This document shows, one piece after another, positions 8,628 to 45,811 of a stretch of DNA of 64,000 nt. The position numbers and the translations under genes are program-made. Under the pieces are notes generated by a model that worked only from the letters and a program-made list of their open reading frames with translations, did no database searches and was not told the DNA's origin. The stretch's first letter is position 1. The number at the start of each line of letters is the position of its first letter. This stretch comes from Spongiibacteraceae bacterium (GTDB taxonomy: Bacteria > Pseudomonadota > Gammaproteobacteria > Pseudomonadales > CAMLJR01): assembly GCA_043786385.1 (NCBI GenBank), contig JAYVWC010000013.1:722-64721 (forward strand), written 5' to 3'.

Positions 8628-9771
8628 TTTTTGGCTTACGCCATTTCAAAAAGAAGCTGTATAGCATACTGAGCTCGTAAGCTATAGAGACTTGAATTGC
8701 GGTGATTAGTTTGCCGGGATGTCGCCAAAAAGGTGCGCCGAGCTTTAATTTATTCGTCTGGCTGTTGCATACCAGGTCGGGAAGGTAGTCTAAAAGATAT
8801 CCTTCGTAATAAAGGCGTCCACACATCTCCAGATCTTCGGCTTCTCCCCACGCAATATCGATATTGTAAGGGTCTCGCACGATGCTGCGCATATTAAATA
8901 GAGTGACGCCGCCATCTATATACGGAACCCTATTTCGGAATAGGTAGAGGTGCCGAACGCCAAAGTCACTGGAAGTGATAGCTTTTTGGGGGCTCGGTCT
9001 CGCCGTATCATAGCTGCCGATCAAAATATAGTCCAGGTAGGGGTGCTTGTTGGTGCCATCCTGGAATATTACTTTTGGCGAAGCAATTTCGAAGTCTTTA
9101 TTTTTTAGCGCGATCCAGAATCCCTCTGGAAATAATATTCGCGTATGCGAAATTGCAAGTAAATCACTTTCTGCAAGCTTAAAAATAAGAGATTTTTTTT
9201 TGCATGTTAGAATGCGTCCGGTGCCATCTACAGCATCCATTGCCTGATACTGTATCCTCAGCTTAGGGAAGCTGGCGAGCAATGGTTCAGGATTATATTG
9301 GCCGCCTCCGACGATGATTACTTGGCAGTTCTTTACAGTTAAGCCAGCAATTTTCGCTATGCTATCTAACGCTGCCCATAGCAGTGGTTCTTCGGTATTA
9401 TTGCCGGAAAATACAATGCCGAAGGAAATGCTTTCCGGATGTTCTTTGGGCGCCGTTTTTCGTAAGCGGATAAATCCTTGGGCATTATTAAGGTGTATTA
9501 CCTCAACATGCTTCCCTATTGATTTCATGCATTCATTGCGCACTTGCCAGAAACCAACTTGCTTTGTAGAGAGCCCATATCCTTCTGTAGGCGATGAAAA
9601 TATTTCTAGAAAACCATCTTTTTTTAATCGAAAAAGACAATATTTGAATGCGTGCCGGAGAAGGCCGCGCTGTTTGAAGTATCGGACATCGAGATAAATG
9701 GATTCATAGGTTTTTGAGTCGGTCTGGATCTTATATAAATCATTAATTGTTCTAATACTAAGTTGCGTCAT
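8620..9771 (-). CDS. Hypothetical protein with GT-A/GT2-like C-terminal domain
   Basis: ISFGIVF...ALDSI...QVIIVG, KKKSLI, SHTRI and WGEAED pattern resembles GT2. Start set to ATG 9771, which overlaps the wzx stop as ATGA. Confidence 0.5.
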   Translation of the reverse strand: MTQLSIRTINDLYKIQTDSKTYESIYLDVRYFKQRGLLRHAFKYCLFRLKKDGFLEIFSSPTEGYGLSTKQVGFWQVRNECMKSIGKHVEVIHLNNAQGFIRLRKTAPKEHPESISFGIVFSGNNTEEPLLWAALDSIAKIAGLTVKNCQVIIVGGGQYNPEPLLASFPKLRIQYQAMDAVDGTGRILTCKKKSLIFKLAESDLLAISHTRILFPEGFWIALKNKDFEIASPKVIFQDGTNKHPYLDYILIGSYDTARPSPQKAITSSDFGVRHLYLFRNRVPYIDGGVTLFNMRSIVRDPYNIDIAWGEAEDLEMCGRLYYEGYLLDYLPDLVCNSQTNKLKLGAPFWRHPGKLITAIQVSIAYELSMLYSFFLKWRKPKID

Positions 9772-11039
9772 TTGGCTTTCACCGAGAATGCTTTTTCTGA
9801 GATGAAATGGTAGAAGATCGCTCCAATTAAATAAATACAACCAGACAAAAGGACGGTCGTGCCGAGATTTATAGTGTACCAAGCGCTGGCTGTCATTACG
9901 AAGGCGATAGCACCAACTAAATAAAAGCTAAGATTGCGTATTGTCTGGAAGTAGCCACCAATAGATACCAGAAAGGTTCCGGCTACATGTTGTATCGAAT
10001 TTCCAATTAGCCAGGAAGCCAATCCAATCAATAGTAGAGTGTCAAATTGATATTTGTCATGTACCCATACCGCCATAATCCACCGGTGCAGCGTAGTGAA
10101 AACTCCTATCATGGTAAAAGACACGCAAAGGCTGAGCATAAGAGTATTTTTTTTCATAGTCCTGGCGGCATCATGCCGGTTTTGGAAAAAACTTTTAGTA
10201 ATGGTATGTATGGTTACGTCTGACACTGCTCGCATTACAGTTGCCATGCCTGAATAAATACGCATCCAAAGACCGTATACCACTACTTGTTTAATATCTA
10301 AAAAAACAGGAATAATTAAGTACCCCCAATTGTAGATTAAGGTTTCATTAACCATAAATAACAGATAGCTCAGCGTTTCTCGCCGGTACTGTAAGAAGTA
10401 TTTAATCAAAAAAGGTAGGCGTATCCGGCAGAGTGTTAACAAGTTGATGCCGCTGAGACGTAGTAGGCTACCCGTAACATAGCAATAGGTGCCAAGAAGG
10501 ATAGCTAATTGGCAGCAAACTGTGAGGAGGAGGCTGTGATCTAATACTAGAAGAAAACTAGTGGAGATATTGCCTACTCGTCTAATTAACTCGGTGACCT
10601 CAAAACTGATATATCGATCAATAGCATTAAATATATTTTTAAAGAATGAAATTGCAGTGTTAATGGCTAAATTGATGGCCATAATTATTACAACTGTGCT
10701 TGAAAGTGAGTTGCTAATTATGTTGGTCAAAATAATTACAGCTATAGTAAATAGGGCAACTGCTAGCATGCCGATCAAAATATAGAAATACAGAATGTAA
10801 CTAATGTCCGTGCTGATGTCGTCGCCATTGAGGTATTTTTTTCGTAAACTCGGATAGATAGGTCGACTTATACCGGCATCAATCCAACTAAGAAATACCG
10901 AATAACCGGATATTAGTACCAATAGCGCGAGATTCGATTGGTCAAAGTATTTTGCATATAACCAGATTTGCACAAAGCCGGTGACGGTTCCTACCGCTAT
11001 CGATGAATAACGAAGTAGTGCATAAGACTTAGGAATCAC
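9768..11039 (-). CDS. Polysaccharide flippase (Wzx-like)
   Basis: 423 aa with about 12 hydrophobic segments inside a Wzy-type locus. Confidence 0.7.
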   Translation of the reverse strand: MIPKSYALLRYSSIAVGTVTGFVQIWLYAKYFDQSNLALLVLISGYSVFLSWIDAGISRPIYPSLRKKYLNGDDISTDISYILYFYILIGMLAVALFTIAVIILTNIISNSLSSTVVIIMAINLAINTAISFFKNIFNAIDRYISFEVTELIRRVGNISTSFLLVLDHSLLLTVCCQLAILLGTYCYVTGSLLRLSGINLLTLCRIRLPFLIKYFLQYRRETLSYLLFMVNETLIYNWGYLIIPVFLDIKQVVVYGLWMRIYSGMATVMRAVSDVTIHTITKSFFQNRHDAARTMKKNTLMLSLCVSFTMIGVFTTLHRWIMAVWVHDKYQFDTLLLIGLASWLIGNSIQHVAGTFLVSIGGYFQTIRNLSFYLVGAIAFVMTASAWYTINLGTTVLLSGCIYLIGAIFYHFISEKAFSVKAK

Positions 11040-19849: not shown

Positions 19850-21244
19850 CTATCGCGACCAATGCCATTGTTGCGGCTGGTAACTGATACCCAGTGACAC
19901 AACATTGGAGTTCGCTTGGTTGTCGATTTGAGTATATTTTTGTTTGCTGAATGTATAGCCAGCGTTTAAAAACCATTGTTCACTGATTTGGTGTCGGTAG
20001 TTTAGTGAGGCATTCCCGTAATTGCGATCGGCGCTTGACGAATTCTGTATCGAATTGCTACCACCTATTGCACGGTTGCGTACCAGTGTTAGGCTGGTGG
20101 AGATCTGATCCAACTCCGTTAATGCGTAACTCCAGTTTGAGCCGATTTGCAATTGATCAACCGTGTAACCGCTGGAGGTGGGTTGCGAAGATTGCGTTGT
20201 ATTTAAGCCAAACTGTTGCCGTTCATTGTGCCAGGTCCAATCGAGCTCCGCAGTAAACAGTCGGTCGTTCTGATCGGGTAAATTACATATGCCGCCGACG
20301 GGGTACTGTGCTGCTTGTAAAGCAATGTAATATGGATTGGCGCAAAAATCTTGCGTCGAGCTGAGTGGGTAGGAGGTTGAGTTTTGCGAGCTACCCACGC
20401 GCGCCTGTAGCAATGATTCCTCGGACCATTGGTGATCGATGCCGACTTGAACCCCTTCGTTTTTAGTTCGAGTCGAGTAACTTTGTTGGCCAAAACGGTT
20501 TGCTGGAACAGTGCCATAGTCTCCAGAGACGTCTTGGTTTGGCACCCCAAAGGTCACATCGTCGGAATCAAAATCCGAATAATTTACGGCTGTAACCCAT
20601 TTTGTTCTTTCATTAAAAATATAAATCCAATCGACTTCAGCGCCGGTGTTTTTGTAGCCGGTATAGCCCGCGCTGTGGTAATCCTGAGTGCTGTAGGTGG
20701 CACTCAGTTGTAATTGATTAGTTTCATTCAGTATGTAGGTCCAGTTGGGAGAGATACGATATATTTCCGTTGGTTCAGCCTTGTCGCTGATATTGCCGCT
20801 GGTCAATAATTCACTGGTAATGGTGGATTCGCGTACGATGGCAGCATTTAATCCCACGCTGCTGTTTTCAAATTGATGCGCTAGCGCGAGCGCGATATTT
20901 TGATCGTCGCTATTAAATTCGTTCTTATCGTAACGATTAAATGAGAAGGTTGATGTCAGCGCCAGTTTTGAGGTTTCCGTGCTGGCATCGAGCGTCAAAA
21001 CCGGTGCGACTTGATATTTGGTGACTGCTGTTTTGTCGCTCTGCACCAGGCGTAAGTTGTCGTTATGGCTCGTATTTGCATTTATCACCGCACTGGCGGA
21101 ATAATCGGTGGCTGAGGCTATCGATGTAACGCTTGCAAAGATTAACGACAAAATAACTCGTTTGCTTTGGGGCGGCAGCGCTAACGAACTTTGAGTCGAC
21201 GACAGCAGTGCTTGACGAATAATGTTAAATCGCATTGAGTGCAA
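19850..21244 (-). CDS. Outer-membrane beta-barrel protein of the polysaccharide export locus
   Basis: Signal peptide, NDN motif near the N-terminus, alternating aromatic beta-strand pattern; lies between wza and wzc. Confidence 0.7.
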   Translation of the reverse strand: MHSMRFNIIRQALLSSTQSSLALPPQSKRVILSLIFASVTSIASATDYSASAVINANTSHNDNLRLVQSDKTAVTKYQVAPVLTLDASTETSKLALTSTFSFNRYDKNEFNSDDQNIALALAHQFENSSVGLNAAIVRESTITSELLTSGNISDKAEPTEIYRISPNWTYILNETNQLQLSATYSTQDYHSAGYTGYKNTGAEVDWIYIFNERTKWVTAVNYSDFDSDDVTFGVPNQDVSGDYGTVPANRFGQQSYSTRTKNEGVQVGIDHQWSEESLLQARVGSSQNSTSYPLSSTQDFCANPYYIALQAAQYPVGGICNLPDQNDRLFTAELDWTWHNERQQFGLNTTQSSQPTSSGYTVDQLQIGSNWSYALTELDQISTSLTLVRNRAIGGSNSIQNSSSADRNYGNASLNYRHQISEQWFLNAGYTFSKQKYTQIDNQANSNVVSLGISYQPQQWHWSR

Positions 21245-21247
21245 GCC

Positions 21248-21799
21248 TTACGGAACCACAACCACATCGCCACTTTGGAGTGGGATGTTGGTCTTTAACG
21301 CGTCGCCGGTTTTTACATCGCTATAGCTGAATTTAATGGCCTTTTGTGATCCATCCGGTTGGCGATGCAATACATTGATGCTGCTTTCAGCGGCGTAGGC
21401 ATTTAATCCGCCAGCAATTGCTAAAGCTTGCATAATGTCGGTGGGGCCATTGATGGGGTACATGCCGGGGCGATTCACTTTGCCCAACACGTATATTTGA
21501 TTGCCTGCGGTTTGTTTTATCGAGATGGTGACCGAAGGTTTGTCTTTCATAAACTTCGCCAGTCTTTCAGCCAAGCTCTCCTGCAATTCTTCCGCGGTTA
21601 GACCACCGGCCATTAGCTGGCCGGCCAGCGGTACGCTGATTTTGCCATCGGGGTGGACGAGTACTTCTTGGGAGAGATCTTTTTCGTTCCACACGTAAAC
21701 GATCAGAATATCGCCAGGATTCAAATGATAGGGCGCGATTTCCGCGCGCGCATACGTAGCTGATACAAGTAGTAGTACGATCAAAATAAAACGAGACAT
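21248..21799 (-). CDS. wza: Short polysaccharide export protein (OPX/Wza family; PES plus one SLBB domain)
   Basis: YHLNPGD, VHPDGKISVPLAG, IYVLGKVNRPG and LQSGDVVVVP motifs; no lipobox or C-terminal OM helix. Confidence 0.85.
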   Translation of the reverse strand: MSRFILIVLLLVSATYARAEIAPYHLNPGDILIVYVWNEKDLSQEVLVHPDGKISVPLAGQLMAGGLTAEELQESLAERLAKFMKDKPSVTISIKQTAGNQIYVLGKVNRPGMYPINGPTDIMQALAIAGGLNAYAAESSINVLHRQPDGSQKAIKFSYSDVKTGDALKTNIPLQSGDVVVVP

Positions 21800-22276
21800 G
21801 ACGCTCTCTTATCAATAAATGTTGAATGGTACTAACGGGTTCGACATTCAAGCTTTGGATGTTCCAGCTTAGTATGTCTGACGTTGACTGCAAATTTATG
21901 AAAACGCCTTAACGGCCAGTTATTTGTCTGTTTAGCAGGCCTTCACTTAGGGCAACAATTGCGTGCAATCGTTCCGCAATGTCTGTTTTTATTTCTACTT
22001 TTGCGGTTGAGGCCGCTTACGGTGACCGCTATCCAGCGCGGCGCTTAGTATACTATCGAAACGAGTAGTCAGCACTACGTTGAACATAAGAGAAGAGTCG
22101 GCCGTCGAGCCAGTTTTAAATTTTTATCGATTCCGCTATAGCCAGACGGCTTGTGTCTGCTTATCATGTGCCCGGTAAATAACAAGTCTAAAACACAAAT
22201 AATTTGTTGGCATGCTCCCGCGCGGCGGGGCAGCTTCGATAAACATAAGTTTAATAATAGATAATCACTCAAGGAG

Positions 22277-23617
22277 ATGCTTATGAAGAACTCAGCTGTA
22301 TTCGCGGCTATTCCATTTACCACCCTTTTATTGCTGGCCGGCTGTGGTGGTAGCAGTTCTGGGGGCGATCCATCTACTCCATCTACACCTACTCCACCCG
22401 TATATCCGCCTATTCCACCGGCTGAATTGCTCCCTGCGACGTCGGCGGGCATGTGGGATGGCACCACTGGCACGAACCGCACTATTTCAGGTGTTGTCAC
22501 GAAAGAGGGTAACTACTGGCTCGCGTACAGCTCAGTAGGCAATGCTGCCGTGCCGGCTGGGTTTTATGCGGGGCAGGCCGCCCCAGAGAGCGGTAGTTTT
22601 TCAGCGCCAGGTTTGCGGGAGTTTAATTTTGAGAGTGGTGGTGCCCAGCAGGGCACATTGACATCGACTTACACGCAGTCGCTGGGGTATACCAGTGCCA
22701 ACACGCTGGCAGGCTCGTTTGGGAGTGTGACTGTAGGTAACACCTACGGCCTGACAGCTACCGGCAAAATGGTCAACGCAACAGGCGGTGGCGATATTCT
22801 CCTCTCTTTTAGCGGAACCTGGGATGCTGACGCTAATGCTGGCACGTGGGCAGGTACAATCGCTGCACCTGCTCTGGCCAGTAGCGGGGATGGTCTTATA
22901 CATGTCCTAGGGCAAAGTTTTACAATGAACGAAGCTGATGGTAAAGGCCTTTTGGCGTCGGCACTCTTGACCAATTGTAGCGATCCGTTGGGTGGTGTGG
23001 GGTGTGCTAGCCTTATCCCCTCCTTCAAGGGCCAGCTTCGTAGCGGCGCTACCAACACCCCTTTTTATGATCCCGTAACGAACAACATTCCAAACGGTGC
23101 GCAGGCCGCTGCCTTCGTGCCAGTCGATGGTCTTAGCGTATCTTGGCTGCTTCGCATCACTGATGCTACTACTACTCCTATCACTTACACGTACAATCCG
23201 CTGACTGTGACGTTGACTGCGCAGTCGTTGCCATCGATAACCGCGGATACATTTACCAGCACTTATAACGTCGCATATGAAGCAGCGCCAACGTTGGCTG
23301 CTGTCGCGGGGGCTCATGCAGGCGTGAGTGGCGTGGGTAACGCGATGGATCTGACGGGCGCAGCATTTAATGTTGATGCTACAACGGGTGCGGTGACCGG
23401 TGGTAGTACCGGTACTGGCGGTTGCACGTTCTCTGGCTCGCTTGCTCCGCACTCCACAGGCAATGTTTACGACGTAACTTTTAATTTTACCCCTGGCGGA
23501 TCATGCACCTACACTGGCGCCTTTACCGGGGCAGCCTACTTGAGCGCGAGTAATAAGTTGACGGTTACGTTAGTGGATAGTGCTCGCAATAAGGGGTTTC
23601 TATTTGTAGCAAATTAA
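22277..23617 (+). CDS. Outer-membrane lipoprotein carrying an inserted domain homologous to the neighbouring PEP-CTERM protein
   Basis: RBS AAGGAG; lipobox LLAG-C23; Pro-rich linker; residues ~157-314 align by eye with the 24042-24710 product. Confidence 0.85.
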   Translation: MLMKNSAVFAAIPFTTLLLLAGCGGSSSGGDPSTPSTPTPPVYPPIPPAELLPATSAGMWDGTTGTNRTISGVVTKEGNYWLAYSSVGNAAVPAGFYAGQAAPESGSFSAPGLREFNFESGGAQQGTLTSTYTQSLGYTSANTLAGSFGSVTVGNTYGLTATGKMVNATGGGDILLSFSGTWDADANAGTWAGTIAAPALASSGDGLIHVLGQSFTMNEADGKGLLASALLTNCSDPLGGVGCASLIPSFKGQLRSGATNTPFYDPVTNNIPNGAQAAAFVPVDGLSVSWLLRITDATTTPITYTYNPLTVTLTAQSLPSITADTFTSTYNVAYEAAPTLAAVAGAHAGVSGVGNAMDLTGAAFNVDATTGAVTGGSTGTGGCTFSGSLAPHSTGNVYDVTFNFTPGGSCTYTGAFTGAAYLSASNKLTVTLVDSARNKGFLFVAN

Positions 23618-23655
23618 AAAAGAGAAGTGGTTGCGGGGTAGTTATTGCGCAACAT

Positions 23656-23689
23656 AAAAAAAAGGGGCTGCATTATGCAGCCCTTTTTT
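23656..23689. terminator. Bidirectional intrinsic terminator
   Basis: A8-G-GGGCTGCA-TTA-TGCAGCCC-T6, downstream of the lipoprotein gene. Confidence 0.85.
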
Positions 23690-23973
23690 ATGGGTGGCTT
23701 TTCTAGTGAGGCGAGAATCGGCGAGGGTGCGGCGAGCTGTGGCAATGGCACGCCGCATTGTGGGCTGGGCGATGGATGGCGGATGCCTCAGGCGCTTATC
23801 ACACTACACTGATGATGGCGATTGCACCATGCAAGCCCGGCGAAGGTTTGCTCCATCACCAGGAGTGGGCACCTTAGGCGTAGTGATCGCGGCAGCCAGT
23901 ACATGAGTAAGCGTTATCGAGTGAGGAGCGAGTGGGTCTGATGGGGGCGCGTGGGTATTTTTATGAGGGGTCT

Positions 23974-24004
23974 ATAAAGAACTAGCGCGGGATTGCCCCG
24001 CGCT
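23974..24004 (-). terminator. Probable intrinsic terminator of the PEP-CTERM gene
   Basis: AGCGCGGG/CCCGCGCT stem at 23984-24004, followed on the minus strand by AGTTCTTTAT. Confidence 0.55.
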
Positions 24005-24041
24005 GTACGCCATCCTTGGCGCTGTTAAGTCCGAGTACTGA

Positions 24042-24710
24042 TTAAGCTGCGCGACGGCGGCGAGCTGTACCAGCCAAGCCCAACAGGGCAGAGCCGAACA
24101 ACCATGCTGCTGCCGGTACTGGTACTTGCGAGAGTGTGACAGACAGCGGATTGTAAGTGTAGACGGTGTATCCTGCGGTGATGACCTCATCAGTCTCTGG
24201 ATCGATGACTGGTGCGACTGCAGTGGCTATGCGGAGCAGCCAACTTGTGGTGAGGCCATTAGATGGCACGAAGCCAACAGCTGGTGTAGTTGGGGTGGGT
24301 GTCAATACGGGGGCCCAAGCGGGGGTATTGGTGGCGCCATTTTGGAGGCTGCCCTTGAAGCCGGGGAGAGTGCCAGCACATCCTGGGCCACCCAATGGAT
24401 CAGTACAGTTCAATCCGCCGGCAGCCTGTGACAAAAGGCCTTTGCCATTGACTTCGTCCATAGTAAAGTTTTGGGTGGTGATATGGATAAGGCCATCGCC
24501 AACGCCTTCCAGCGCGGGCGGATCGATTGTTACGCCCCACGAGCCAGCATTTGTCGCATCATTCCAGGTGCCGACCATAGTGAAGAAGATGTCGCCGCCG
24601 CCTTCCGGATTAACTTGTTTGCCAGAAGCGTTGACGTCCCAGATGGCAGCGTTTGCAGCGCCAGCGCCGACCAGAACAGATACAGCCAATAAAGATTTAA
24701 TTGCGTTCAT
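24042..24710 (-). CDS. VPLPA/PEP-CTERM sorting-signal surface protein
   Basis: Signal peptide ending AANA; C-terminus VPVPAAAWLFGSALLGLAGTARRRRAA (motif, TM, Arg cluster). Confidence 0.93.
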   Translation of the reverse strand: MNAIKSLLAVSVLVGAGAANAAIWDVNASGKQVNPEGGGDIFFTMVGTWNDATNAGSWGVTIDPPALEGVGDGLIHITTQNFTMDEVNGKGLLSQAAGGLNCTDPLGGPGCAGTLPGFKGSLQNGATNTPAWAPVLTPTPTTPAVGFVPSNGLTTSWLLRIATAVAPVIDPETDEVITAGYTVYTYNPLSVTLSQVPVPAAAWLFGSALLGLAGTARRRRAA

Positions 24711-24717
24711 TATGTGT

Positions 24718-24849
24718 TTCCTCGAGGTTACTCGAGAAAGGTGGTGACCCGACTATCTTGGCAGCTCTTCACTTCAATGCCGCGACTGCTCAAGACTCGT
24801 AGTTTTCCGTCCCCAGCTCACACTGGGTTTGGCCTTTTACAGCTTTCCC
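24718..24849 (-). ncRNA. c-di-GMP-I (GEMM) riboswitch with translational expression platform
   Basis: Minus strand reads GGGAAAGCTGTAAAAGGCCAAACCCAGT-GTGA-GCTGGGGACGGAAAACTACGAGTCTTG...CAAGATAGTCGGGTCACCACCTTTCTC, matching the GEMM-I layout (AAACC, GNRA loop, GACG.AAA, AGATAG, ACC). Confidence 0.85.
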
Positions 24850-25279
24850 AAACAATGGTTATTAATTTTAGATTTACTTCCTCCGTTGCCCTCGCTAAAC
24901 CGCAGTACAGGACAACTGGTGCATAGAAATACTATATGCCCCTGTGCAATGCAACCACATAATAAGAACTTATGGAGCTAGATAGATATTTCATAGAGTT
25001 TTTAGTGCTAAGAAGTTAGATTGGCGCAGAAGAATTGATTTCTAACTATTTGTTTTTAATATATTTTTTAATTCAATAGCACTTTGTAGCTAGGCATGCC
25101 GACGTCATGGATAGTGCAACTTTATGGATCAAATAACCTTGAAATAGTTCCTCTGCGGGCGAAAATGATGCGGCAATAAACGCGGATGCGACACTAAACG
25201 CTTGCGGCAGCAAAGTCTGAGTCCATAGGTTAATGAAGTTGAAGGCCGTTGTTTGCGTCTATTAACTGGTCTGGCTGGA

Positions 25280-31213: not shown

Positions 31214-34200
31214 ATGCCAAATCATGCGCTAAATCAACCAGCAGCAATCGATTTATCCGTATCCAATAGCGATTCCCTGATGCAGGAAAATTTTCGCCTG
31301 CTGGGCATTACGCCGTTTGAGTTTGCCGATTTGGCATTGGCACAGGCATTTATCCGCCACGGCGGTGCTGCGGCAATCGATATCGGCCGCGATACCGCGC
31401 AATGGCCGCAATTATTTGCACAGCTCGAACGAGCGCACTCGCCGTTTCTCGGTGTGCGTATTCCCGATCGCGTGCCGATGACTGCAGTACTATTGCCGCA
31501 AACAGTCGGCTTTGTTGTCATCGATGCCGGTGCGAATATCGCTGCGTGGAGTTCGCAATTCGCCGTCATCGTACAAGTGACTTCGGTGACGCAGGCATTA
31601 ACCGCGCTGAAAGCCGGTGCGCGTGCATTGATCGCCAAAGGTCAGGAGAGCGGTGGCTTAATCGGCGACGAGAGCAGTTTTATTTTATTGCAGCGCATTC
31701 TGAGTTTGCCGGAGGCGCGCGATATTCCGGTGTGGTGTCAGGGCGGTATCGGTTTACACACAGCGGCGGGTGCGATTGCCGGTGGTGCGTTCGGCGTGGT
31801 GCTCGATAGTCAATTGGCGTTGTTGAACGAAAGTCGCATCGGCGATGACATTAAAAATGCGGTGCGTGCGATGGATGGCAGCGAGACCTGTGTGATCGCT
31901 GGTTATCAACTTTACAGTCGACCGGGTTTGCCGGTTGCTGAAAGCCATGCGTTGAACGCCGATGAAGTGCGTGCGCGGTTGGCCGGCAGTCATCTCTTGG
32001 GCAATAGTAATTTGCAACAAAATAGTAATTTGCAACAATTTTTACCGCTCGGTCAGGATGCGGCGTTGGCGCATGCGCTCGCTGCGCAATGCCCGAATGT
32101 CGAAGCATTGCTGAATAGTTTGCGCGCGAGTATCGCCGGTCATATTCGCCAGGCGCAGGCGTTGCAATCGCTACAGGAAAATAGTCCGCTGGCACTCGCA
32201 CATGGTACGCGCTTGCCGATTGCGCAAGGGCCGATGACGCGCGTCAGCGATACCGCTGCGTTTGCCGCTGCAGTTGCTGAGCAGGGTGCGCTGCCGTTTC
32301 TCGCGTTATCTCTGATGAATGCCAGCACCGCGCGCAAACTACTTGAAGAGACCCGCGCCAGTATCGGTCAGCACAGTTGGGGCGTCGGCGTGTTGGGTTT
32401 TGCCAATGCAGAAATTTTAAATCCGCAACTCGAATTGATTCGCGAATTTCGACCGTCGGTGGTGTTGTTAGCCGGTGGACGTCCGGCGCAGGCGCGGCCG
32501 CTGATCGAACTCGGCATCACCACGTATTTGCATGTGCCGTCGCCAGGTTTACTCGAATTATTTTTGAAAGATGGTGCGCGGCATTTCGTATTCGAAGGCC
32601 GTGAATGCGGTGGCCACGTTGGCCCGCGTTATAGTTTTGTACTGTGGGAACAACAGCTGCAATTGCTGCTTAATTTCGAACACGCCGAAGAGTTGCATAT
32701 TTTATTTGCCGGCGGCATTCACGACGAGCGCTCGGCGGCGATGGTCGCGACGATGGCCGCACCATTGGCCGCGCGCGGCGCAAAAATTGGCGTGTTGATG
32801 GGCACTGCATATATCGCCACGCAAGAAGCTGTCGATTGCGGTGCGATCGTGCGCAGTTTTCAACAGCAGGCGGTTGGCAGCGGCGAAACGGTGTTGATCG
32901 AAACAGCACCGGGACATGCGGTGCGGTGTTTGCCGTCGAATTTCGTGCAGCAATTCAACGCCGAAAAAGCGAATTTGCAAGCGCGCGGTTTGGATCGCCA
33001 AGAAATTTGGAAGCAACTCGAAGAATTGAATATCGGCCGCTTGCGTATCGCCACCAAAGGCGTCGAGCGCGGCGACGATGGCTTGATCGAAGTCGATCAA
33101 CGCCAGCAAAACGATGCCGGCATGTACATGATCGGCCAGCTGATCGCATTGCGCAGCAGCATCGGCAATATCGCCGAATTGCATCGCGCCGTCAGCGGCG
33201 GTGCGATCGAATTTTTAAATAATGTCGAAGTGCCATTGATGCCGCGTGCAAAAAATGCCGAGCCAATTGCAATCGTCGGCATGGAATGCATTTATCCCGG
33301 TTCGCCCGATCTCGAAGCGCTGTGGGCGAATATTCTCGCCGGCAACGATTTGATCACCGAAGTACCGGCCGAGCGCTGGAACACCGATTTATATTATCGC
33401 GAAGGCGCCGCGCAAAAAGGTAAATCGCCGAGCAAGTGGGGCGGCTTTATCGATGCGATTGCGTTCGATCCGCTCGAATACGGTATTCCACCGCAATCGC
33501 TCGCGGCGATCGAGCCGGTGCAATTGCTCAGTTTGGAAGTGGCGAAGCGCGCACTGGTCGATGCCGGTTACGGCGCGCAGCAGCGCTTTTTCGATCGCGA
33601 AAAAACTGCGGTGATTTTTGGTGCCGAAGCGGGCATGGATCTCGCGAACAGTTATGCGTTCCGCAATTTGTATCCACATTATCTCGGCGAATTGCCGCCG
33701 GAACTCGATGCCGTATTGCCCGATTTAACCGAGGATTCGTTCCCCGGTGTATTGGTCAATGTGATCTCGGGTCGCATCGCCAATCGTTTGGGTTTGAGTG
33801 GCGTTAATTATTCGGTCGATTCGGCATGCGCCAGCTCGCTCACCGCGATCGAATTGGCTGTGAAAGAATTGCGCGCCGGTAGCAGCGATATGGTGTTGGC
33901 TGGCGGCGCGGATTTCCACAACAGCATCAACGATTTTTTAATGTTCGCGAGCGTCGGTGCGCTGTCATCGCAGGGTCGTTGTCGCTCGTTCGATAGCAGC
34001 GCCGATGGTATTTGCTTGGGCGAAGGCGTCGGCGTCGTCGTGTTGAAACGGCTCGAAGATGCACAGCGCGATGGCGATCGCATTTATGCGTTGATCGACG
34101 GCATCGCCGGTTCCAGCGATGGCAAAGGTTTAGGTTTAACCGCGCCGCGCAAAGACGGACAAAAACGCGCGCTCGAACGCGCGTATTGGCAAGCGGGTAT

Positions 34201-37200
34201 TCTGCCGGCGGAAATCGGCTTGGTCGAAGCGCACGGCACCGGCACCGTGGTCGGCGATAAAACCGAATTGCAAACGATGACCGAAATTTTCACTGCGGGT
34301 GGCGCATTGCCTGCGCAGGCGGCGTTGGGCTCCGTCAAAAGTCAGATCGGTCACACCAAATGCGCCGCCGGTATCGCCGGTTTTATCAAAATCAGCAAGG
34401 CGCTGTATCACCAAGTGTTGCCGCCGACCTTGCATATCGAAACACCGAATAGCGCGTATCGCGCCGCCAGCAGTCCGTTCACGTTGAATAGCACCGCACG
34501 GCCGTGGCTACAAAATCAATATGGCGTGCCGCAACAAAAATTGCGCGCGGCAGTCAGCGCGTTCGGTTTCGGCGGCGCGAATTTTCACGCGGTGCTATCC
34601 AATTATGTCGGTGATCACGCGAATTACATGGGCGATCCTGCGAATTATCTTGGCAATCAAGCGCATTGCGGCGCGGTGCAATGGGCCGCTGAATTATTTA
34701 TTTTTCGCGGCGAGCAATTCGCGCATGCCGCGCAGACGATGCAGCAGCTGCTTAACTTTATCGAAGCCAGCGACGCCACGCTCGCGTTACGCGATTTGAG
34801 TTTTACTGCGGCGCAGGCCGGCAGCGGCGCGTTGCAATGCGCGTTTGTTGCGCACGATCGCGCTGAATTGTTCGCGAAATTAACGATGGCGCTACAGCGC
34901 GAAATCAATTCGGCGCTTTGCTATCGCGACGCCGATGTGAACACTGGGAAAATCGCGTTTGTGTTTCCGGGCCAAGGCAGTCAAACGCCGGGCATGCTGC
35001 ACGAATTATTTATCGCGTTTCCGCAATTGCACGATGTGTTGGCGATCGATCCGGCGTGTGCGGCGATTTTATTTCCGCCGACCGCGTACGCACGCGCCGA
35101 GCAGCAAGCGCAGCAGCGTGCGATCACCGACACGCGCATTGCGCAGCCCGCGCTCGGCATGGTCGAGCTGAGCGCGATGACGTTACTGAAAGCGCTCGGC
35201 ATCGTGCCGGCGATGGCGGCCGGTCACAGCTACGGTGAATTAGCTGCATTGGCGAGCGCCGGTTGTTTTGATGCCGCGACGTTATTGCAAGTGAGCCGCC
35301 AGCGCGGCGAAGCGATTCTCGCCGCAGCGGGTAACGATCCCGGCAAAATGGCGGCGGTGAATTGCGGTTACACCGAGCTGCAAAAATTATTCGGCGACGA
35401 TGCGGCTGTGGTACTCGCCAATCAAAACAGCGCGACGCAGACGGTAATTTCGGGTCCGACGCTCGCGATCGATGCGGCGCTGGTGTTTCTGAAAGAGCAG
35501 GGCATTGCTGCGAAAGCGATCGAAACCGCGTGTGCATTTCACTCGCCGGTGGTGGCGCGCGCCGCGGTGTTATTTTCCGGCGTGTTGCAAAACGTCGAAA
35601 TCGCAGCTCCGAGTTTTCCAGTGTATTCAAATACCACGACGCTGCCGTATCAAAGCGATACTGATGCGATCAAACATCAATTGGCGCAACACGTGGTTAG
35701 CCCGGTGCGCTTCGTCGAACAAATCGAAAAAATGTACGCCGACGGCGCGCGCGTGTTTGTCGAAGTCGGACCGAAGCGCGTGCTTAGCGGCTTTATCGAT
35801 AATATTCTGCAAGGCAAAGCGCATCGCGCGATTGCAATCGAGCCTGCGGGCCAAACCGGCATCGGCGCATTTTTGCACGCGGTGGCACAGCTCGCGGTGC
35901 TTGGCGATACGCTGGATATGGCGGTGTTGTTCGCGGGACGAAAACCGCGCGTGCTTGATTTAACCACGCCGCAAAAATTATCGGCCGCGTGCTGGATGGT
36001 CGATGGTGGTCGTGCATGGCCGCGCACCGGCCGCGCGCCGCAACACGCTGGCAAAGCGATTACCGCGCCGTTGCAACTCAGTGTTAACAGCGCCGCGCTG
36101 CCCGCATCGCTCGAAGAAAATGCCGTGGTCGGTTATCTCGACAATATGCGCGAATTAGTGCGCGCGCAGCGCGATGTACTGCTCGGTTTTCTCGGCCAAG
36201 CGCCGACACCGATGGCAGCGAGAAATGAAATCGCGACGCCGCGCATTGCTGCTCCAAACTCAACGCGCAACGAATCGATCGCCAGCGTTAAAGTTGACGA
36301 GCCGGAGCCAGTAGCAGATGCCGCGCCGCACGCCGTCGATTTTCAAGCGACGTTGCTTGCGATCGTCAGCGAGCGCACCGGTTATCCGATCGAGATGCTC
36401 GATCTCGATCTCGATTTAGAAGCCGATCTATCGATCGATTCGATAAAGCGCGTCGAAATTATTGGTGAGCTGGCGGCGCGGTTGGATTTTCGCCAGCAAC
36501 TCGGCGCCGATGCCGATGCGCTGCTCGAACAATTATCGACGCAGAAAAATTTGCGCGCGATTATCGACTGGCTTAACGAATATGCCGGAGATCGCAATGC
36601 GAATATGAATTTAGCGACCGGCACTGTAGCGGTTGACGAACAAACCGACACCGAGCAAAAAATAGAAATTCCACTCGGCCGCTACGTATTGAAAAGTGTA
36701 CTCGTCCCGGCTGTGATTCAGGGCGTGCGCGAATTGCACGGCAAACAATTCGTGCTCACCGACGATAGCCTCGGCATTGCAGCGCAATTAGCGGCGCGGT
36801 TAACGGCGCGCGGCGCGCTGGTGCGGGTAATTAATTTCAGCGAAGACGAAGCATTCCCTGCCGATTTGCAACACGTCGATGGCTTGATTCATCTGTGGTG
36901 TTTGAATCCCGACAATCGCGTGCGCGATGTCAAACGCTTTTTCGATTTGGTACGCGAAACACTGCTGCACCAAACGCGCTCGGTATTGGTGGCCAGCGGT
37001 CTCGGCGGCGATTTCGGTTATCACGTGCCCGCCGCGAATGAAATCGCGTCGGACTTTGGCCGCGGCGCGGGCTTGGCGGGCATGATCAAATCGATCGATA
37101 AAGAATGGCCCGAAGTGCGCGCGCATTGGGTCGATCTCGATTTGCGCGAAGCACCGGAGCAATTGGCCGCGCATCTTGAAGACGAGCTGTTGGCGCAAAA

Positions 37201-38155
37201 TGATTTGACCGAAGTCGGCTATCGCGATGGCGCGCGGCGGCGTCTCGAGTTTATCGAGGTTGCATTGCCGCAGCTGACGACGCTGCCGTTGGATTTAAGC
37301 GTCGATAGCGTCGTATTGTTGACTGGCGGCGCACGCGGTATCACCGCAGGTCTTGCGATCGAATTGGCGAAGCGTTATCGCTGCCGCTTGGAATTGGTCG
37401 GGCGCTCAGCATTGCCGTTGGCACCGGAGTCTGCGAAAACTGCAACGATTACCGATATCAAACAATTGCGACAGACGGTGATCGCCAGCGAACCAACGTT
37501 GAAGCCGTTGGAAATTGAACGCCGCTGCGCGCAAATTCTCGCCGAGCGCGAGATGCGCAATACCATTGCTGCAATCGAGGCAGCCGGTGCGCGCGTCGCA
37601 TACACGCAACTCGATGTGCGCGACATCGATGCGTTCGCGGCGTTTATCGAAAATCTGTACGCGCGCTACGGTTCGATCGACGGCGTGATTCACGGCGCCG
37701 GGGTGATCGAAGACAAATTGATGCGCGATAAATCGCCGGAAAGTTTTCAACGCGTGTTCGATACCAAAGTGCGTGGCGCGTTGATGCTCGATAAATTATT
37801 GCGCGCTGATTGTAAATTCGTCGTATTTTTTTCCAGCGTTGCGAGTGCGTTCGGCAATCGCGGTCAAGTGGATTACGCGGCGGCCAACGATGTGCTCGAT
37901 AAACTCGCGCTGACGTTGCGCACGCGTTTACGCGGCCGCGTGTTGTCGGTGAACTGGGGGCCGTGGGCCGATACCGGCATGGTGTCGCCGCAACTCGAAC
38001 GCGAATATGCGCAGCAAGGCATCGGTTTGATTCCGTTGGCAGTGGGCATCGATGCGTTGTTGCACGAATTAACGGCGGGCAGTCGCGATGATGCACAGGT
38101 GGTTTTGATGTGTGGCACACCGGCAAGTTTCGGCGCGCCGAGCAGCGCGGGGTAA
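31214..38155 (+). CDS. Type I PKS/PUFA-synthase-like protein: FMN-dependent enoyl reductase (NMO/FabK/PfaD-like)-KS-AT-ACP-KR
   Basis: PIAQGPM, EGRECGGH and FAGGIHD (ER); DSACASS, EAHGTGT and GHTK (KS); FPGQG, GHSYG and AFHS (AT); DLSIDSI (ACP); TGGARGI and YAAAN (KR). Confidence 0.92.
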   Translation: MPNHALNQPAAIDLSVSNSDSLMQENFRLLGITPFEFADLALAQAFIRHGGAAAIDIGRDTAQWPQLFAQLERAHSPFLGVRIPDRVPMTAVLLPQTVGFVVIDAGANIAAWSSQFAVIVQVTSVTQALTALKAGARALIAKGQESGGLIGDESSFILLQRILSLPEARDIPVWCQGGIGLHTAAGAIAGGAFGVVLDSQLALLNESRIGDDIKNAVRAMDGSETCVIAGYQLYSRPGLPVAESHALNADEVRARLAGSHLLGNSNLQQNSNLQQFLPLGQDAALAHALAAQCPNVEALLNSLRASIAGHIRQAQALQSLQENSPLALAHGTRLPIAQGPMTRVSDTAAFAAAVAEQGALPFLALSLMNASTARKLLEETRASIGQHSWGVGVLGFANAEILNPQLELIREFRPSVVLLAGGRPAQARPLIELGITTYLHVPSPGLLELFLKDGARHFVFEGRECGGHVGPRYSFVLWEQQLQLLLNFEHAEELHILFAGGIHDERSAAMVATMAAPLAARGAKIGVLMGTAYIATQEAVDCGAIVRSFQQQAVGSGETVLIETAPGHAVRCLPSNFVQQFNAEKANLQARGLDRQEIWKQLEELNIGRLRIATKGVERGDDGLIEVDQRQQNDAGMYMIGQLIALRSSIGNIAELHRAVSGGAIEFLNNVEVPLMPRAKNAEPIAIVGMECIYPGSPDLEALWANILAGNDLITEVPAERWNTDLYYREGAAQKGKSPSKWGGFIDAIAFDPLEYGIPPQSLAAIEPVQLLSLEVAKRALVDAGYGAQQRFFDREKTAVIFGAEAGMDLANSYAFRNLYPHYLGELPPELDAVLPDLTEDSFPGVLVNVISGRIANRLGLSGVNYSVDSACASSLTAIELAVKELRAGSSDMVLAGGADFHNSINDFLMFASVGALSSQGRCRSFDSSADGICLGEGVGVVVLKRLEDAQRDGDRIYALIDGIAGSSDGKGLGLTAPRKDGQKRALERAYWQAGILPAEIGLVEAHGTGTVVGDKTELQTMTEIFTAGGALPAQAALGSVKSQIGHTKCAAGIAGFIKISKALYHQVLPPTLHIETPNSAYRAASSPFTLNSTARPWLQNQYGVPQQKLRAAVSAFGFGGANFHAVLSNYVGDHANYMGDPANYLGNQAHCGAVQWAAELFIFRGEQFAHAAQTMQQLLNFIEASDATLALRDLSFTAAQAGSGALQCAFVAHDRAELFAKLTMALQREINSALCYRDADVNTGKIAFVFPGQGSQTPGMLHELFIAFPQLHDVLAIDPACAAILFPPTAYARAEQQAQQRAITDTRIAQPALGMVELSAMTLLKALGIVPAMAAGHSYGELAALASAGCFDAATLLQVSRQRGEAILAAAGNDPGKMAAVNCGYTELQKLFGDDAAVVLANQNSATQTVISGPTLAIDAALVFLKEQGIAAKAIETACAFHSPVVARAAVLFSGVLQNVEIAAPSFPVYSNTTTLPYQSDTDAIKHQLAQHVVSPVRFVEQIEKMYADGARVFVEVGPKRVLSGFIDNILQGKAHRAIAIEPAGQTGIGAFLHAVAQLAVLGDTLDMAVLFAGRKPRVLDLTTPQKLSAACWMVDGGRAWPRTGRAPQHAGKAITAPLQLSVNSAALPASLEENAVVGYLDNMRELVRAQRDVLLGFLGQAPTPMAARNEIATPRIAAPNSTRNESIASVKVDEPEPVADAAPHAVDFQATLLAIVSERTGYPIEMLDLDLDLEADLSIDSIKRVEIIGELAARLDFRQQLGADADALLEQLSTQKNLRAIIDWLNEYAGDRNANMNLATGTVAVDEQTDTEQKIEIPLGRYVLKSVLVPAVIQGVRELHGKQFVLTDDSLGIAAQLAARLTARGALVRVINFSEDEAFPADLQHVDGLIHLWCLNPDNRVRDVKRFFDLVRETLLHQTRSVLVASGLGGDFGYHVPAANEIASDFGRGAGLAGMIKSIDKEWPEVRAHWVDLDLREAPEQLAAHLEDELLAQNDLTEVGYRDGARRRLEFIEVALPQLTTLPLDLSVDSVVLLTGGARGITAGLAIELAKRYRCRLELVGRSALPLAPESAKTATITDIKQLRQTVIASEPTLKPLEIERRCAQILAEREMRNTIAAIEAAGARVAYTQLDVRDIDAFAAFIENLYARYGSIDGVIHGAGVIEDKLMRDKSPESFQRVFDTKVRGALMLDKLLRADCKFVVFFSSVASAFGNRGQVDYAAANDVLDKLALTLRTRLRGRVLSVNWGPWADTGMVSPQLEREYAQQGIGLIPLAVGIDALLHELTAGSRDDAQVVLMCGTPASFGAPSSAG

Positions 38156-38160
38156 GCGCG

Positions 38161-41100
38161 GTGGAACCGATTGCCATCGTCGGCATGGCCGGAATTTTCC
38201 CCGGCGCACCCGATATAACTTGCTACTGGCGCAATATCGTCGCGGCGGTCGATGCGATCAGCGATGTGCCCGCGCAGCGTTGGGATCCATTGTTTTACGA
38301 TCCCGAGTCGAGCGCGATCGATCGCTTTTATTGCAAGCGCGGCGGCTTCGTCGACGACTATGTCGATTTCGATCCGCTGCAATTCGGCGTGATGCCGAAG
38401 GCCGCGCAATCAGCCGATCCCGATCAATTGCTGAGTTTGCGCGTCGGCGTCGATGCATTGACCGATGCCGGTTACAAAACACGAGAGTTTGCGCGCGTGC
38501 GCACCGGCGTGATTATTGGTCGCGGCAATTATTTGAGTGCCGGCACCTTGCGTCTCGAGCAGCATGTGCGGTTGGTGCAACAAACATTGCAAACGCTGCA
38601 AGATTTATTGCCCGATATCGGCGCTGAACAACTCGCGCAAGTACGCACGCAACTTGAAAATAAATTGGATTATTACGGCCCCGATGTCGCAGTCGGCATG
38701 ATTCCAAATTTAGTTGCATCGCGCTTAGCAAATCGACTCGATTTGCAAGGCCCTGCGTACACCGTCGATGCCGCGTGCGCAAGTTCGCTGCTGGCGATCG
38801 AGCAAGCGTGTCAATTATTGGCGCACGGCGACTGCGACATGATGCTCACTGGCGGTTTGCATTTCACTCACGATTTAACTTTCTGGGCGACGTTCTGTCA
38901 GCTCGGTGCGTTGTCGCGCGCGCAGAAAATAAAACCGTTTGCGCACGATGCCGACGGTATTCTCGCTGGCGAAGGTATCGGTATCGTCGTACTAAAACGC
39001 TTAGCCGATGCCGAGCGCGACGGCGATCGCATTTACGCATTGATACAAGGTGTCGGCAGCGCCAGCGATGGCCGCGGCAGCAGTTTGTTGGCACCAGCGG
39101 TCGGCGGCCAATTATTGGCGCTGCAACGTGCGTGGCAACACAGCGCGCTAAAGCCTGAGCAAATCGGTTTGGTCGAGGCGCATGGCACTGGCACGCCGGC
39201 TGGCGATCAAGCCGAATTGGAAACGATGCGCCAGTTTTTCGGCGAACGAGTTTTTGGCGATCACATTTTTGATAAACAGGCGAGCGCCTATCAGCGCCCT
39301 GTGATCGGCTCGGTTAAATCGATGATCGGCCACGCGATGCCGGCCGCCGGTGTTGCCGGATTAATCAAAGCCGCGTTGTCGGTATATCACGGCGTATTGC
39401 CGCCAACGCTGCACTGCGAACAACCGCATGCATTGCTGGCACGCACGCGCTTTCGCACAATATCGAAGTCCGAACCGTGGCACGCCAAGCAGCGCATCGC
39501 AGCGGTGAATGCATTTGGCTTCGGCGGTATCAATGCGCATATCGTGTTGTCTTCGCATCGCGCACAGCCCGTATCGTTTAATCATGCATCGATGGCTGCG
39601 GTTTCGGTTAATTCAATTTCCGTTCAATCCACACATGTAGCGCCACCACCGGTCGTGGTGATCGCCGCTGCATCGCAAGCCGAATTGCTCGAAAAATTAC
39701 AGCGCGCGCAGTGGGATCGAGCGCCCGGCAACGGCACTTGGCGCTTGGCGATTATCGAACCCGATGCGAAGCGTATCGAGTTGGCAAAAAAAGTGGTTGC
39801 GAATGGCAAGGTCTGGCACGGCCGCAGCCAAATTTATTTTTCCTGCGAGCCGCTGCTTAACAATACAAATACGCCGTCAGCAAAAGTTGCGTTTTTATTT
39901 CCCGGTGTCGATAGCGCATTCGAGCCGCGCGCCACCGATGTCGCCGACTATTTTCAATTGCCACTACCGGAACATTGCGAATCGTTGGATCCCGCTCAAT
40001 CGCTGCTAAAAGTAGTGCAGGGTTTATCGGGTTTTAATCAATTTACGTTTAGCGTGTTGAATCGCTTGGCGGTGCACGCCGATGGCATGGCGGGGCACAG
40101 CATCGGCGAGTGGAGCGCGATGGTCGCGGGCGGCATGTTGGCGCGCGAGCGCGCGGAGGCTGCATTATCAAAACTCGATTTCGATGGCGTTAGCTTTCCA
40201 GATTTAATTTTTCTTGCTGCCGCGTGCGATTTAAGCATGGTGCAATCAGCATTGGCTAGCTTAGCCGATGTTGCGCTATCGCACGATAACTGTCCGCATC
40301 AAACGATCGTCTGCGGCAGTTCGGCATCGATTGCGCAGGTCGAAGCGCGCTTGCGCGAACAGAGCGTATTGATGCAGCGGCTGCCGATTGTGTCGGGCTT
40401 CCACACGCCATTTTTTGTCGAACATTTGCCGCATTACCGCGATTTCTTTTTGCAGACCGAGTTAACCGAGTCGAGCGTTCCGGTTTGGTCTGCGACGACG
40501 GCGCAGCCATTTCCGAATTCGGTTGCAGCGAAACAGCAATTGGCGCTCGATCATTTGGTACAGCCGGTGCGCTTTCGACAAATGATCGAAAACATGTACG
40601 TAGCAGGTTATCGCGTATTCATTCAATTGGGCACCGGCAGCCTCAGTGGTTTTGTGCAGGATACGTTGAAAGGCAAGCCGCATTTGGCGATCAACGTCAA
40701 CAGCGACAAACACAGCGGGCTGCAGCAACTAACGCAGCTCAGTGCGGCGCTATGGGTTGAAGGTTTGCAATTTGATTATCGCTTATTGGGTTTTGCCGAT
40801 GCGGTAGAAAACGTTTCATCAAAAAAAACGGCACCCAGCGCGAATTCAATCAAATTGCGCTTAGGAGTGCCGTTGATCCGCATGGAGCCAGCGATGACAT
40901 TGCATGCACCGCGGCTCGGTGTGCTAGATAACGGTTCGCTTAGCGATGATCCGATTCAGCGTTTATTTCACGACACGTTGGTCGATATTCAACAGGTCAG
41001 CGATGAAGTCGCGCAGTTGTATCGACAACGGCAGCAGCGTCGCGATCAATCGCCGCATTTACCACAGCCATCGCAAGCAACTCGCGAAACGCTGCAGTCT

Positions 41101-42947: not shown

Positions 42948-42952
42948 AGAGC

Positions 42953-44951: not shown

Positions 44952-44976
44952 ATAGAGAGATAGATAGAGAGCGGCG

Positions 44977-45804: not shown

Positions 45805-45811
45805 CCATCGC

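Follow-up and report, generated by a model that had tools for sequence, protein, structure and literature searches.

Why would a bacterium carry one and the same protein domain on two surface anchors, a lipid in one case and an exosortase sorting tag in the other? The question arises from a 64,000-nucleotide stretch of contig JAYVWC010000013.1 (positions 722 to 64,721; assembly GCA_043786385.1) from a Spongiibacteraceae bacterium, called the window below. A lipoprotein gene and a PEP-CTERM protein gene converge here next to a locus for the export of exopolysaccharide (EPS), and the domain that makes up the mature PEP-CTERM protein is found a second time inside the lipoprotein. One branch of a lipoprotein family has gained this domain as an insert, and in each genome where pairs could be resolved the insert finds its best counterpart in the PEP-CTERM proteins of that same genome. 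The evidence is computational and comes from one genus of uncultured sediment bacteria together with metagenome fragments. High confidence attaches to four points: the architecture, the homology between the copies, their matching within genomes, and the encoded exosortase XrtD.

Two anchors for one barrel domain

How alike are the two copies? Lipoprotein residues 157-320 align by BLASTP with residues 24-200 of the PEP-CTERM protein, with 86 of 178 positions identical (48%) and an E value of 1e-48, at which chance similarity was rejected. Since the span starts just past the signal peptide (ANA, residue 21) and reaches the start of the sorting tag, the alignment takes in the whole mature PEP-CTERM protein, just as a first-pass annotation of the window, made from its letters alone, had claimed for lipoprotein residues ~157-314 (correctly converted there to nt 22745-23218). 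Both open reading frames (ORFs) lie where that annotation had placed them, and every motif block that it listed, the Cys pair included, is present in the alignment. At the DNA level the copies share 66% identity over 381 nt. They are the only two copies of the barrel domain in the window genome, a metagenome-assembled genome (MAG) of 2.58 Mb in 89 contigs that is 82% complete. An assembly chimera is unlikely and was rejected as a source of the arrangement, because positions 21700-24900 lie unbroken within one contig, with zero differences, in each of two single-run sediment metagenome assemblies, which belong to a single study and possibly represent the source sample.

What anchors the two proteins? 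A lipobox ends a signal peptide in the form [LVI][ASTVI][GAS]C, and the sorting of a lipoprotein depends on the residue at +2. The window lipoprotein has the lipobox LLLLAGC, which marks it as a bacterial lipoprotein and substrate of Lgt/LspA. The likelier start of its gene is the ATG at 22283, given the AAGGAG box 6 nt 5' of it and the length of the database copy, P0001, which has 444 amino acids (aa). To judge from the Gly at +2, the protein is probably anchored in the outer membrane on a Pro/Ser/Thr tether of ~30 residues; over residues 21-50 the block mean of the predicted local distance difference test (pLDDT) climbs from 52 to 71, residue values below 50 being confined to 1-11 and 17-20. 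Searches of the lipoprotein body returned 0 Pfam and 0 NCBIfam matches.

The PEP-CTERM protein is built like the substrates of the VPLPA-CTERM/XrtD system (TIGR03370, TIGR04152), with a Sec signal peptide, a passenger, a VP[VL]PA motif, a hydrophobic helix, and an Arg cluster, and the likeness extends to a dedicated XrtD in the window genome and to the position of the gene at an XrtA-type EPS export locus. This XrtD (VPLPA-CTERM exosortase; 527 aa, contig C28) scores 592.9 bits on TIGR04152 (cut-off, 400), and XrtB-like and XrtA-like enzymes are also encoded. On TIGR03370 (VPLPA-CTERM) the window protein reaches 24.9 bits, 0.45 under the curated cut-off of 25.35, and its orthologue P0178 in a related genome (G010) clears it at 25.7 bits. 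The threshold of PF07589 (PEP-CTERM) is not reached (14.1 bits, E 0.051; gathering cut-off, 20.7), the motif here being VPVPA, not PEP. The window protein is a predicted XrtD substrate. Its passenger part matched no Pfam or NCBIfam family. A match to NF033554 (floc_PepA) scores 37.1 bits vs a cut-off of 80 and covers profile positions 208-261; identity with PepA was rejected, since only the C-terminal ~55 residues match, below the cut-off.

About 30 full-length relatives of the PEP-CTERM protein were found, 185-244 aa long. An alignment of 29 of them shows almost no change in the signal peptide, MKAIKTLLAVSVLAAAGAANA, or in the tag, VPVPAAAWLFGSGLLGLAGTARRRR, while its columns from end to end average only 41% identity, which places the variation in the mature part; two cysteines are invariant within this otherwise variable part. 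Conserved ends around a variable core would in themselves ease recombination. In G010, two members of the family stand in tandem (G010:C1:1065478-1066864; L024), 222 and 228 aa long, with barrels 52% identical, a variant tag VPLPSTALLLGSGLVGLVG, and no lipoprotein partner.

How does the domain lie within the lipoprotein? A phmmer search with the window lipoprotein against 1.84 billion representatives gave 536 matches at E ≤ 1e-3, 150 of them listed. Most of the matches listed are ~250-aa proteins that align with query residues ~12-140 and ~323-445 back to back, with E values down to 1e-26. All 39 aligned base members (237-276 aa) lack query residues ~150-324, which agrees with the first-pass idea that the flanks are the two halves of a lipoprotein family contiguous elsewhere; the domain is not native to all homologues, insert-free ones being at hand. 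Both halves can be read in the window lipoprotein, the N-terminal one as ...GxWxGTTxxxR... and the C-terminal one as ...TFTSTYxxxYE...GNVYDV...GFxFxG, and the lipobox is kept in its homologues. No Pfam or NCBIfam model matched this two-barrel family. Among the 153 proteins listed by two homology searches, 102 have at most 330 aa and lack the barrel (87 of these with a lipobox by regular expression), and 47 are longer than 330 aa, 14 of them with a PEP-like barrel and 33, P0014 and P0018 among them, without one at E ≤ 1e-3. A search for longer proteins with the PEP barrel, its reach limited by a word prefilter, recovered the window lipoprotein only. In a tree built from the flanks, the window lipoprotein falls in a clade with members of the family, and all 23 insert-bearing rows form a single clade apart from the 39 base rows (Shimodaira-Hasegawa-like approximate likelihood-ratio test [SH-aLRT], 99), which fits one ancestral insertion event. 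These comparisons show that one branch of a widespread family of ~250-aa two-barrel lipoproteins gained a third domain between its halves.

AlphaFold renders the lipoprotein as three all-beta, 8-stranded barrels (pLDDT 86; predicted template modeling score, 0.74). Residues 337-446 form a barrel that VIA aligns over 100 residues with the designed barrel 6czj_B (Z 12.4, root-mean-square deviation 2.6) and also with 8ah9_A (Z 12.3), and residues 154-316 form another, matched to 6x9z_A (Z 10.8), an OprF barrel (Z 10.6), and ToxS (Z 8.7). The AlphaFold2 model of the mature PEP-CTERM protein is the same 8-stranded barrel (pLDDT 81), with VIA matches to the OprF barrel (Z 9.9) and ToxS (Z 8.4). Matches of the lipoprotein to OmpW (Z 11.1) and a YceI-like protein (Z 8.0) span residues 53 to 336 with only ~105 residues aligned, the insert being skipped. 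The model suggests that the strand at 324-330, after the insert, closes the first barrel, which would put the insert just before the last strand of the N-terminal barrel. The first-pass wording, that the domain was inserted "into a loop," thus has the sequence behind it and is structurally plausible, on an inferred strand topology.

The same scaffold varies in other ways. P0018, P0049, and P0010 carry other, apparently unrelated, often larger inserts at the same junction, and an Ig-like N-terminal extension also occurs. In P0014 (466 aa), the whole ~230-aa two-barrel scaffold is tandemly duplicated within one lipoprotein. The junction seems to be a place where passenger domains in general can be displayed.

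Matching of insert and PEP-CTERM protein within genomes

Does the insert follow its own history, or that of the PEP-CTERM proteins around it? Pairs could be assigned to genomes in four members of the genus: the window genome (G000) and G010 have one pair each, and G009 and G011 have two each, of two distinct barrel types. All six inserts have their best PEP-CTERM match in their own genome. Same-genome identity of insert and PEP-CTERM protein is 53% in G000, 54% in the first G009 pair, 57% in G010, 78% in the second G009 pair, and 84% and 88% in the first and second G011 pairs. Every cross-genome comparison of insert and PEP-CTERM protein falls at 27-68%, and inserts of different lipoproteins are 26-54% identical to each other (67% for the type-2 orthologues). 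Barrels of types 1 and 2, present side by side in G009 and G011, are 27-42% identical, with no cross-match. The first-pass annotation had named a lack of co-varying pairs elsewhere as one outcome that would speak against it; co-varying pairs occur in three other genomes.

A barrel tree of 23 lipoprotein inserts and 29 PEP-CTERM proteins, in which ten very divergent inserts were kept, interleaves the two architectures, and its well-supported branches force at least nine changes of label; the ten very divergent inserts stand apart. It joins the window lipoprotein with the window PEP-CTERM protein (SH-aLRT 100), P0002 with P0170 (100), P0029 with P0180 in a group with P0015 and P0019 (99), P0016 with P0178 (97), P0007 with P0179 and P0185 (96), P0020 with P0157 (96), P0003 with P0160 and P0165 (95), and P0013 with P0162 (88). 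A single clade of inserts is rejected by the approximately unbiased (AU) test on 13 inserts and 29 PEP-CTERM proteins (log-likelihood difference, 712; p-AU, 8e-72); the ten very divergent inserts were excluded from this test and retained in the barrel and flank trees.

What do the DNA sequences add? In the type-1 pair of G011, 85% DNA identity extends over 480 nt that are exactly the barrel. The type-2 pairs have synonymous divergences of 0.49 and 0.51 within their genomes; the values are 1.1 for the window pair and ~1.0 for the first G011 pair, the latter in an alignment that runs beyond the domain. Four of the six within-genome pairs are thus unsaturated. Between genomes, orthologues are saturated at synonymous sites, with a proportion of synonymous differences (pS) of 0.73-0.85. 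The ratio of nonsynonymous to synonymous divergence (dN/dS) is 0.30-0.35, indicating purifying selection on both copies. P0003 and P0013 have scaffolds that are sisters in the flank tree (SH-aLRT 97) and inserts that belong to different major barrel clades. The scaffold and insert trees are here in conflict. The simplest account would be that the lipoprotein and PEP-CTERM genes of one genome have repeatedly traded the barrel segment, both copies then coming under purifying selection. Outside the genus, a profile scan of genome contigs with the PEP-CTERM alignment gave mostly tag-only matches, and three distant genomes with full-length-like matches (G041-G043) yielded no lipoprotein homologue, with the window lipoprotein as query, beyond a signal-peptide match.

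What the matched pair may do

Why should two differently sorted proteins keep one matching domain? The overall best explanation, which on balance we consider somewhat probable, combines the architecture and repeated exchange described above with one recognition module displayed on two anchors. The barrel segment would have been swapped repeatedly between both genes by gene conversion or domain replacement, each exchange being followed by purifying selection on both copies (dN/dS, about 0.3). One copy would be lipid-anchored to the outer membrane on its flexible tether of ~30 residues, and the other would be handed by XrtD to the cell surface or the EPS matrix. With one specificity common to both copies, the envelope of the cell would be tied to its own matrix, either by homotypic barrel-to-barrel contact or by the binding of both copies to the same strain-specific polysaccharide. 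The functional part of this explanation, a strain-specific recognition module that ties the envelope to the cell's own matrix, is tentative and could well prove wrong. If it is true, three things follow. (i) The barrel should show cognate-specific binding to its partner or share a glycan ligand with it. (ii) Both proteins should be co-localized at the cell surface. (iii) Loss of the lipoprotein should mean loss of matrix retention. A complex prediction for the insert (residues 150-325) with the mature PEP-CTERM protein (residues 22-196) scored 0.00 in both runs, which were made without controls, and counts neither for nor against binding.

A number of observations weigh against this explanation. 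The four genomes with resolved pairs belong to one genus and are not independent, and sister pairs among metagenome proteins are not assignable to genomes. Synonymous sites have reached saturation in the type-1 pairs of both G009 (pS 0.81) and G010 (pS 0.86), and their margins at the protein level are small (54 vs 50 in G009, 57 vs 50 in G010). The G009 insert P0020 pairs in the tree with P0157, from a metagenome contig, and not with P0167 of its own genome (52% vs 53%). PEP-CTERM members without a lipoprotein partner exist, two further ones in G010 and one in G011, and in G005 (82% complete) two such members and no lipoprotein were found. Conversely, ten insert-bearing lipoproteins have other or very divergent inserts and no PEP-CTERM counterpart, and for an 800-aa lipoprotein of G003 (L006:1489-3891) no paralogue of the insert was found in its 93%-complete genome. 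As for structure, the strand topology at the insertion point comes from secondary structure and alignment ranges, not coordinates. Foldseek against the Protein Data Bank found no match at E ≤ 1e-3 for either model, so that the barrel appears as a generic small one without a close solved relative, and the fold matches are to generic 8-stranded barrels.

Could the resemblance be without function? Homologous segments of the two genes might recombine now and then while the proteins go about independent tasks, and gene conversion between dispersed paralogues requires no selection. Pairs are found at very different stages, from 88% to 53% identity with two saturated at synonymous sites, and both the partnerless PEP-CTERM paralogues and the lack of conserved adjacency sit well with such drift. 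Neutral exchange is rather unlikely all the same, in that each of the six insert lipoproteins has a matching partner in its own genome, including the two types that do not cross-match in G009 and G011; in G010, with three further PEP-CTERM paralogues, the insert matches the one at the EPS locus (57% vs 49% and 46%); and selection on the two copies is purifying (dN/dS, about 0.3). The exchange might instead serve variation itself, the insert acting as a donor or recipient copy that diversifies a surface-exposed PEP-CTERM protein targeted by phages or grazers, in the manner of pilE/pilS. The hypervariable mature barrel between conserved ends, DNA-level exchange tracts that are exactly the barrel, and the convergent (inverted) arrangement in the window and in the second G009 pair would all suit such a reservoir. 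Yet there is a single donor per recipient and no repertoire, the insert lies inside an intact gene under purifying selection, the window copies, at 66% DNA identity, are too dissimilar for homologous exchange to be still going on, and no variant or inverted forms occur in the two single-run assemblies. Of the readings weighed here we give this one the least credence, as highly improbable.

On which side of the outer membrane does the lipoprotein lie? Surface lipoproteins that depend on Slam (TbpB, LbpB, HpuA, and hemophilin) have a long N-terminal tether and an all-beta two-domain body, in which a beta-rich handle is followed by a C-terminal 8-stranded barrel. The model of the window lipoprotein likewise ends in an 8-stranded barrel, and the protein may be of this plan. 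VIA gives Z 8.1 to TbpB (3v8u_A, 145 aligned), 7.8 to hemophilin (7re4_A), and 7.9 to the HpuA barrel (5ee2_A), a range common for any barrel, and the top Foldseek rows for the lipoprotein model are LbpB and TbpB (none at E ≤ 1e-3). They differ in having no sequence similarity to the window lipoprotein, and we know of none with an inserted third barrel. The weak likeness of the modeled scaffold to TbpB, hemophilin, and HpuA hints at surface display. It is also a point (at Z 7-8) against a periplasmic escort, in which the lipoprotein would face inward from the inner leaflet of the outer membrane and its barrel would capture or template the PEP-CTERM protein between XrtD and its exit. The need for matching would account for the co-variation, and the long tether could span the periplasm. 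A search for a Slam-type flippase (PF04575/DUF560) found none in G000 (82% complete) or in G009, G010, and G011 (95-99%), and it was silent in 14 control genomes too. On the other hand, partnerless PEP-CTERM paralogues would be left without an escort, and a chaperone that copies its client's whole fold has no known precedent, which leaves this arrangement very unlikely.

The proposal of one recognition module on two anchors can be set beside several known systems. PepA of Zoogloea and Aquincola (NF033554) is likewise a small PEP-CTERM protein encoded near EPS genes, and its overexpression in Aquincola raised cell-bound EPS and lowered soluble EPS (PMC9850573). It is a plausible functional analogue of the window PEP-CTERM protein; the passenger is unrelated, and PepA has no reported lipoprotein twin. 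In full-text literature outside subscription journals, at the level of titles and abstract openings, no lipoprotein twin of a PEP-CTERM passenger domain is described, and for the VPLPA-CTERM/XrtD system neither a lipoprotein with the same passenger domain nor co-variation within a genome is mentioned.

The first-pass annotation had imagined the lipid-anchored copy as a possible nucleator or tether for a lattice or fiber built from the other, and the logic is that of curli. In the paralogous pair of nucleator and subunit, CsgB and CsgA, one protein stays with the cell and the other is secreted, and templated assembly depends on their likeness. Curli proteins are co-operonic amyloid repeats, in contrast to the globular barrels here, and show no strain-specific concerted hypervariation. 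In Myxococcus, TraA is a polymorphic, MYXO-CTERM-tagged receptor for homotypic kin recognition, and matching of alleles decides whether cells interact. Like the window PEP-CTERM protein, TraA joins a hypervariable passenger domain to a C-terminal tag that is sortase-like. Its fold and tag are different, and its match is a copy carried by another cell rather than a second, differently anchored one from the same genome; we know of no gene-conversion partner for it. One may speculate, in the same vein, on a self-matching surface code, in which the hypervariable barrel would be a strain-specific homotypic adhesion module, the lipoprotein copy marking the outer membrane and the XrtD-sorted copy decorating the EPS. 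This we regard as unlikely. If it were true, gene conversion would keep the alleles matched while lineages diversify, only cells with the same allele would be held in a given floc or biofilm matrix, kin discrimination would arise from the Lol and exosortase pathways combined, and a PEP-CTERM passenger domain would have its first defined molecular role.

What, then, is new? Exosortase substrates, domain insertion, and concerted evolution were all known already; the new element is that the insert co-varies with a PEP-CTERM protein of the same genome. For the role and destination of PEP-CTERM proteins, the matched pair is a concrete handle. It is also a case of concerted evolution in genes whose products follow different sorting pathways, and the comparisons define an uncharacterized, widespread two-barrel scaffold in which a single junction takes up different inserted domains.

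Gene order and other features of the window

The coordinates of the locus are collected in Table 1. The hairpin just past the lipoprotein gene was reported by the scan on the minus strand, and its T-run on the plus strand was read directly from the sequence. Upstream of the PEP-CTERM gene, a search that allowed up to 2 mismatches found no sigma-54 -24/-12 site; across the window, the consensus scan gave 45 matches vs 41 expected.

Table 1. Features of the lipoprotein and PEP-CTERM genes and of the adjoining exporter gene, in window positions
Feature	Position	Strand	Basis or remark
Wza-like exporter, first gene of EPS export locus	21248..21799	-	TIGR03027 E 1e-37, below model cut-off
Lipoprotein gene	22277..23617	+	446-aa ORF; probable start ATG 22283, giving 444 aa
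Signal peptide and lipobox MKNSAVFAAIPFTTLLLLAG-C, Gly at +2	22283..22345	+	Translation
Gly/Ser/Pro/Thr-rich tether, residues 24-52	22346..22432	+	Translation; low model confidence
N-terminal scaffold flank, residues 53-150, strands 1-7 of first beta-barrel	22433..22726	+	N halves of ~250-aa lipoproteins; model strands E58-E150
Inserted 8-stranded barrel, residues 157-320	22745..23236	+	Homologous to mature PEP-CTERM protein
C-terminal flank, residues 325-446	23249..23614	+	Closing strand of barrel 1 (324-330), second scaffold barrel (337-446)
GC-rich hairpin between A-run and T-run, terminator-like on both strands	23665..23683	.	48 nt past lipoprotein stop
Terminator-like hairpin, 9 pairs (7 GC)	23984..24004	-	38 nt past PEP-CTERM gene stop
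VPLPA/PEP-CTERM protein gene, 222 aa	24042..24710	-	ORF; convergent with lipoprotein gene
C-terminal sorting tag VPVPAAAWLFGSALLGLAGTARRRRAA, residues 196-222	24045..24125	-	Translation, NCBIfam, family alignment
Mature hypervariable 8-stranded barrel, residues 22-195, invariant Cys pair C102/C111	24126..24647	-	Family alignment and AlphaFold2 model
Sec signal peptide, residues 1-21, ...GAANA/A cleavage	24648..24710	-	Near-invariant in family alignment

Are the two genes always neighbors? A PEP-CTERM gene heads the EPS export locus in all four genomes examined. In G009, G010, and G011, the type-1 gene is the immediate upstream neighbor of the Wza-like exporter gene, without an intervening lipoprotein gene; the window alone has the lipoprotein gene, on the opposite strand, set between the PEP-CTERM gene and the EPS operon. 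The lipoprotein genes of G003, G009, G010, and G011 lie elsewhere, beside a cardiolipin-synthase-like gene; no orthologue of this neighbor was found in G000, only a 29%-identical paralogue. The second G009 pair (G009:C9:109218-113562; L035 and L010) is convergent and ~2.4 kb apart, with one TPR/O-GlcNAc-transferase-like gene between a 204-aa PEP-CTERM protein and a 455-aa lipoprotein (barrels, 78%), and the remaining four pairs are unlinked. Adjacency is not the rule; sequence matching is. The earlier interpretation is supported as to the insertion and the co-varying pairs; side-by-side genes are not supported as a general pattern.

The EPS locus, of the XrtA/PEP-CTERM type, occupies the minus strand between positions 21799 and 3. 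It encodes the Wza-like exporter, an outer-membrane protein, a chain-length determinant, a tyrosine autokinase, and an ATPase, as well as sugar-nucleotide enzymes, glycosyltransferases, a Wzy-like protein, and an amidotransferase. The 464-aa protein encoded right after the exporter gene (19850-21244, minus strand) has no Pfam or NCBIfam match at E ≤ 1e-5 and is taken to be the outer-membrane protein from its position and sequence character; its orthologues also come after the exporter gene in G009, G010, and G011. Farther along, a 743-aa ORF (4002-6233, minus strand) has a weak match to the GH123 catalytic domain only (26.7 bits), and the ORFs at 8620-9882 and 9768-11039 near it have no family match. 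At 31214-49171 there is a PfaA-like pair of polyketide/polyunsaturated fatty acid synthases, the first of 2313 aa and the second of 1509 aa with a phosphopantetheinyl-transferase domain at its end. Genes for a glycosyltransferase, alpha/beta hydrolases, and a methyltransferase come next, and the whole points to a biosynthetic cluster of the glycolipid or hydrocarbon type.

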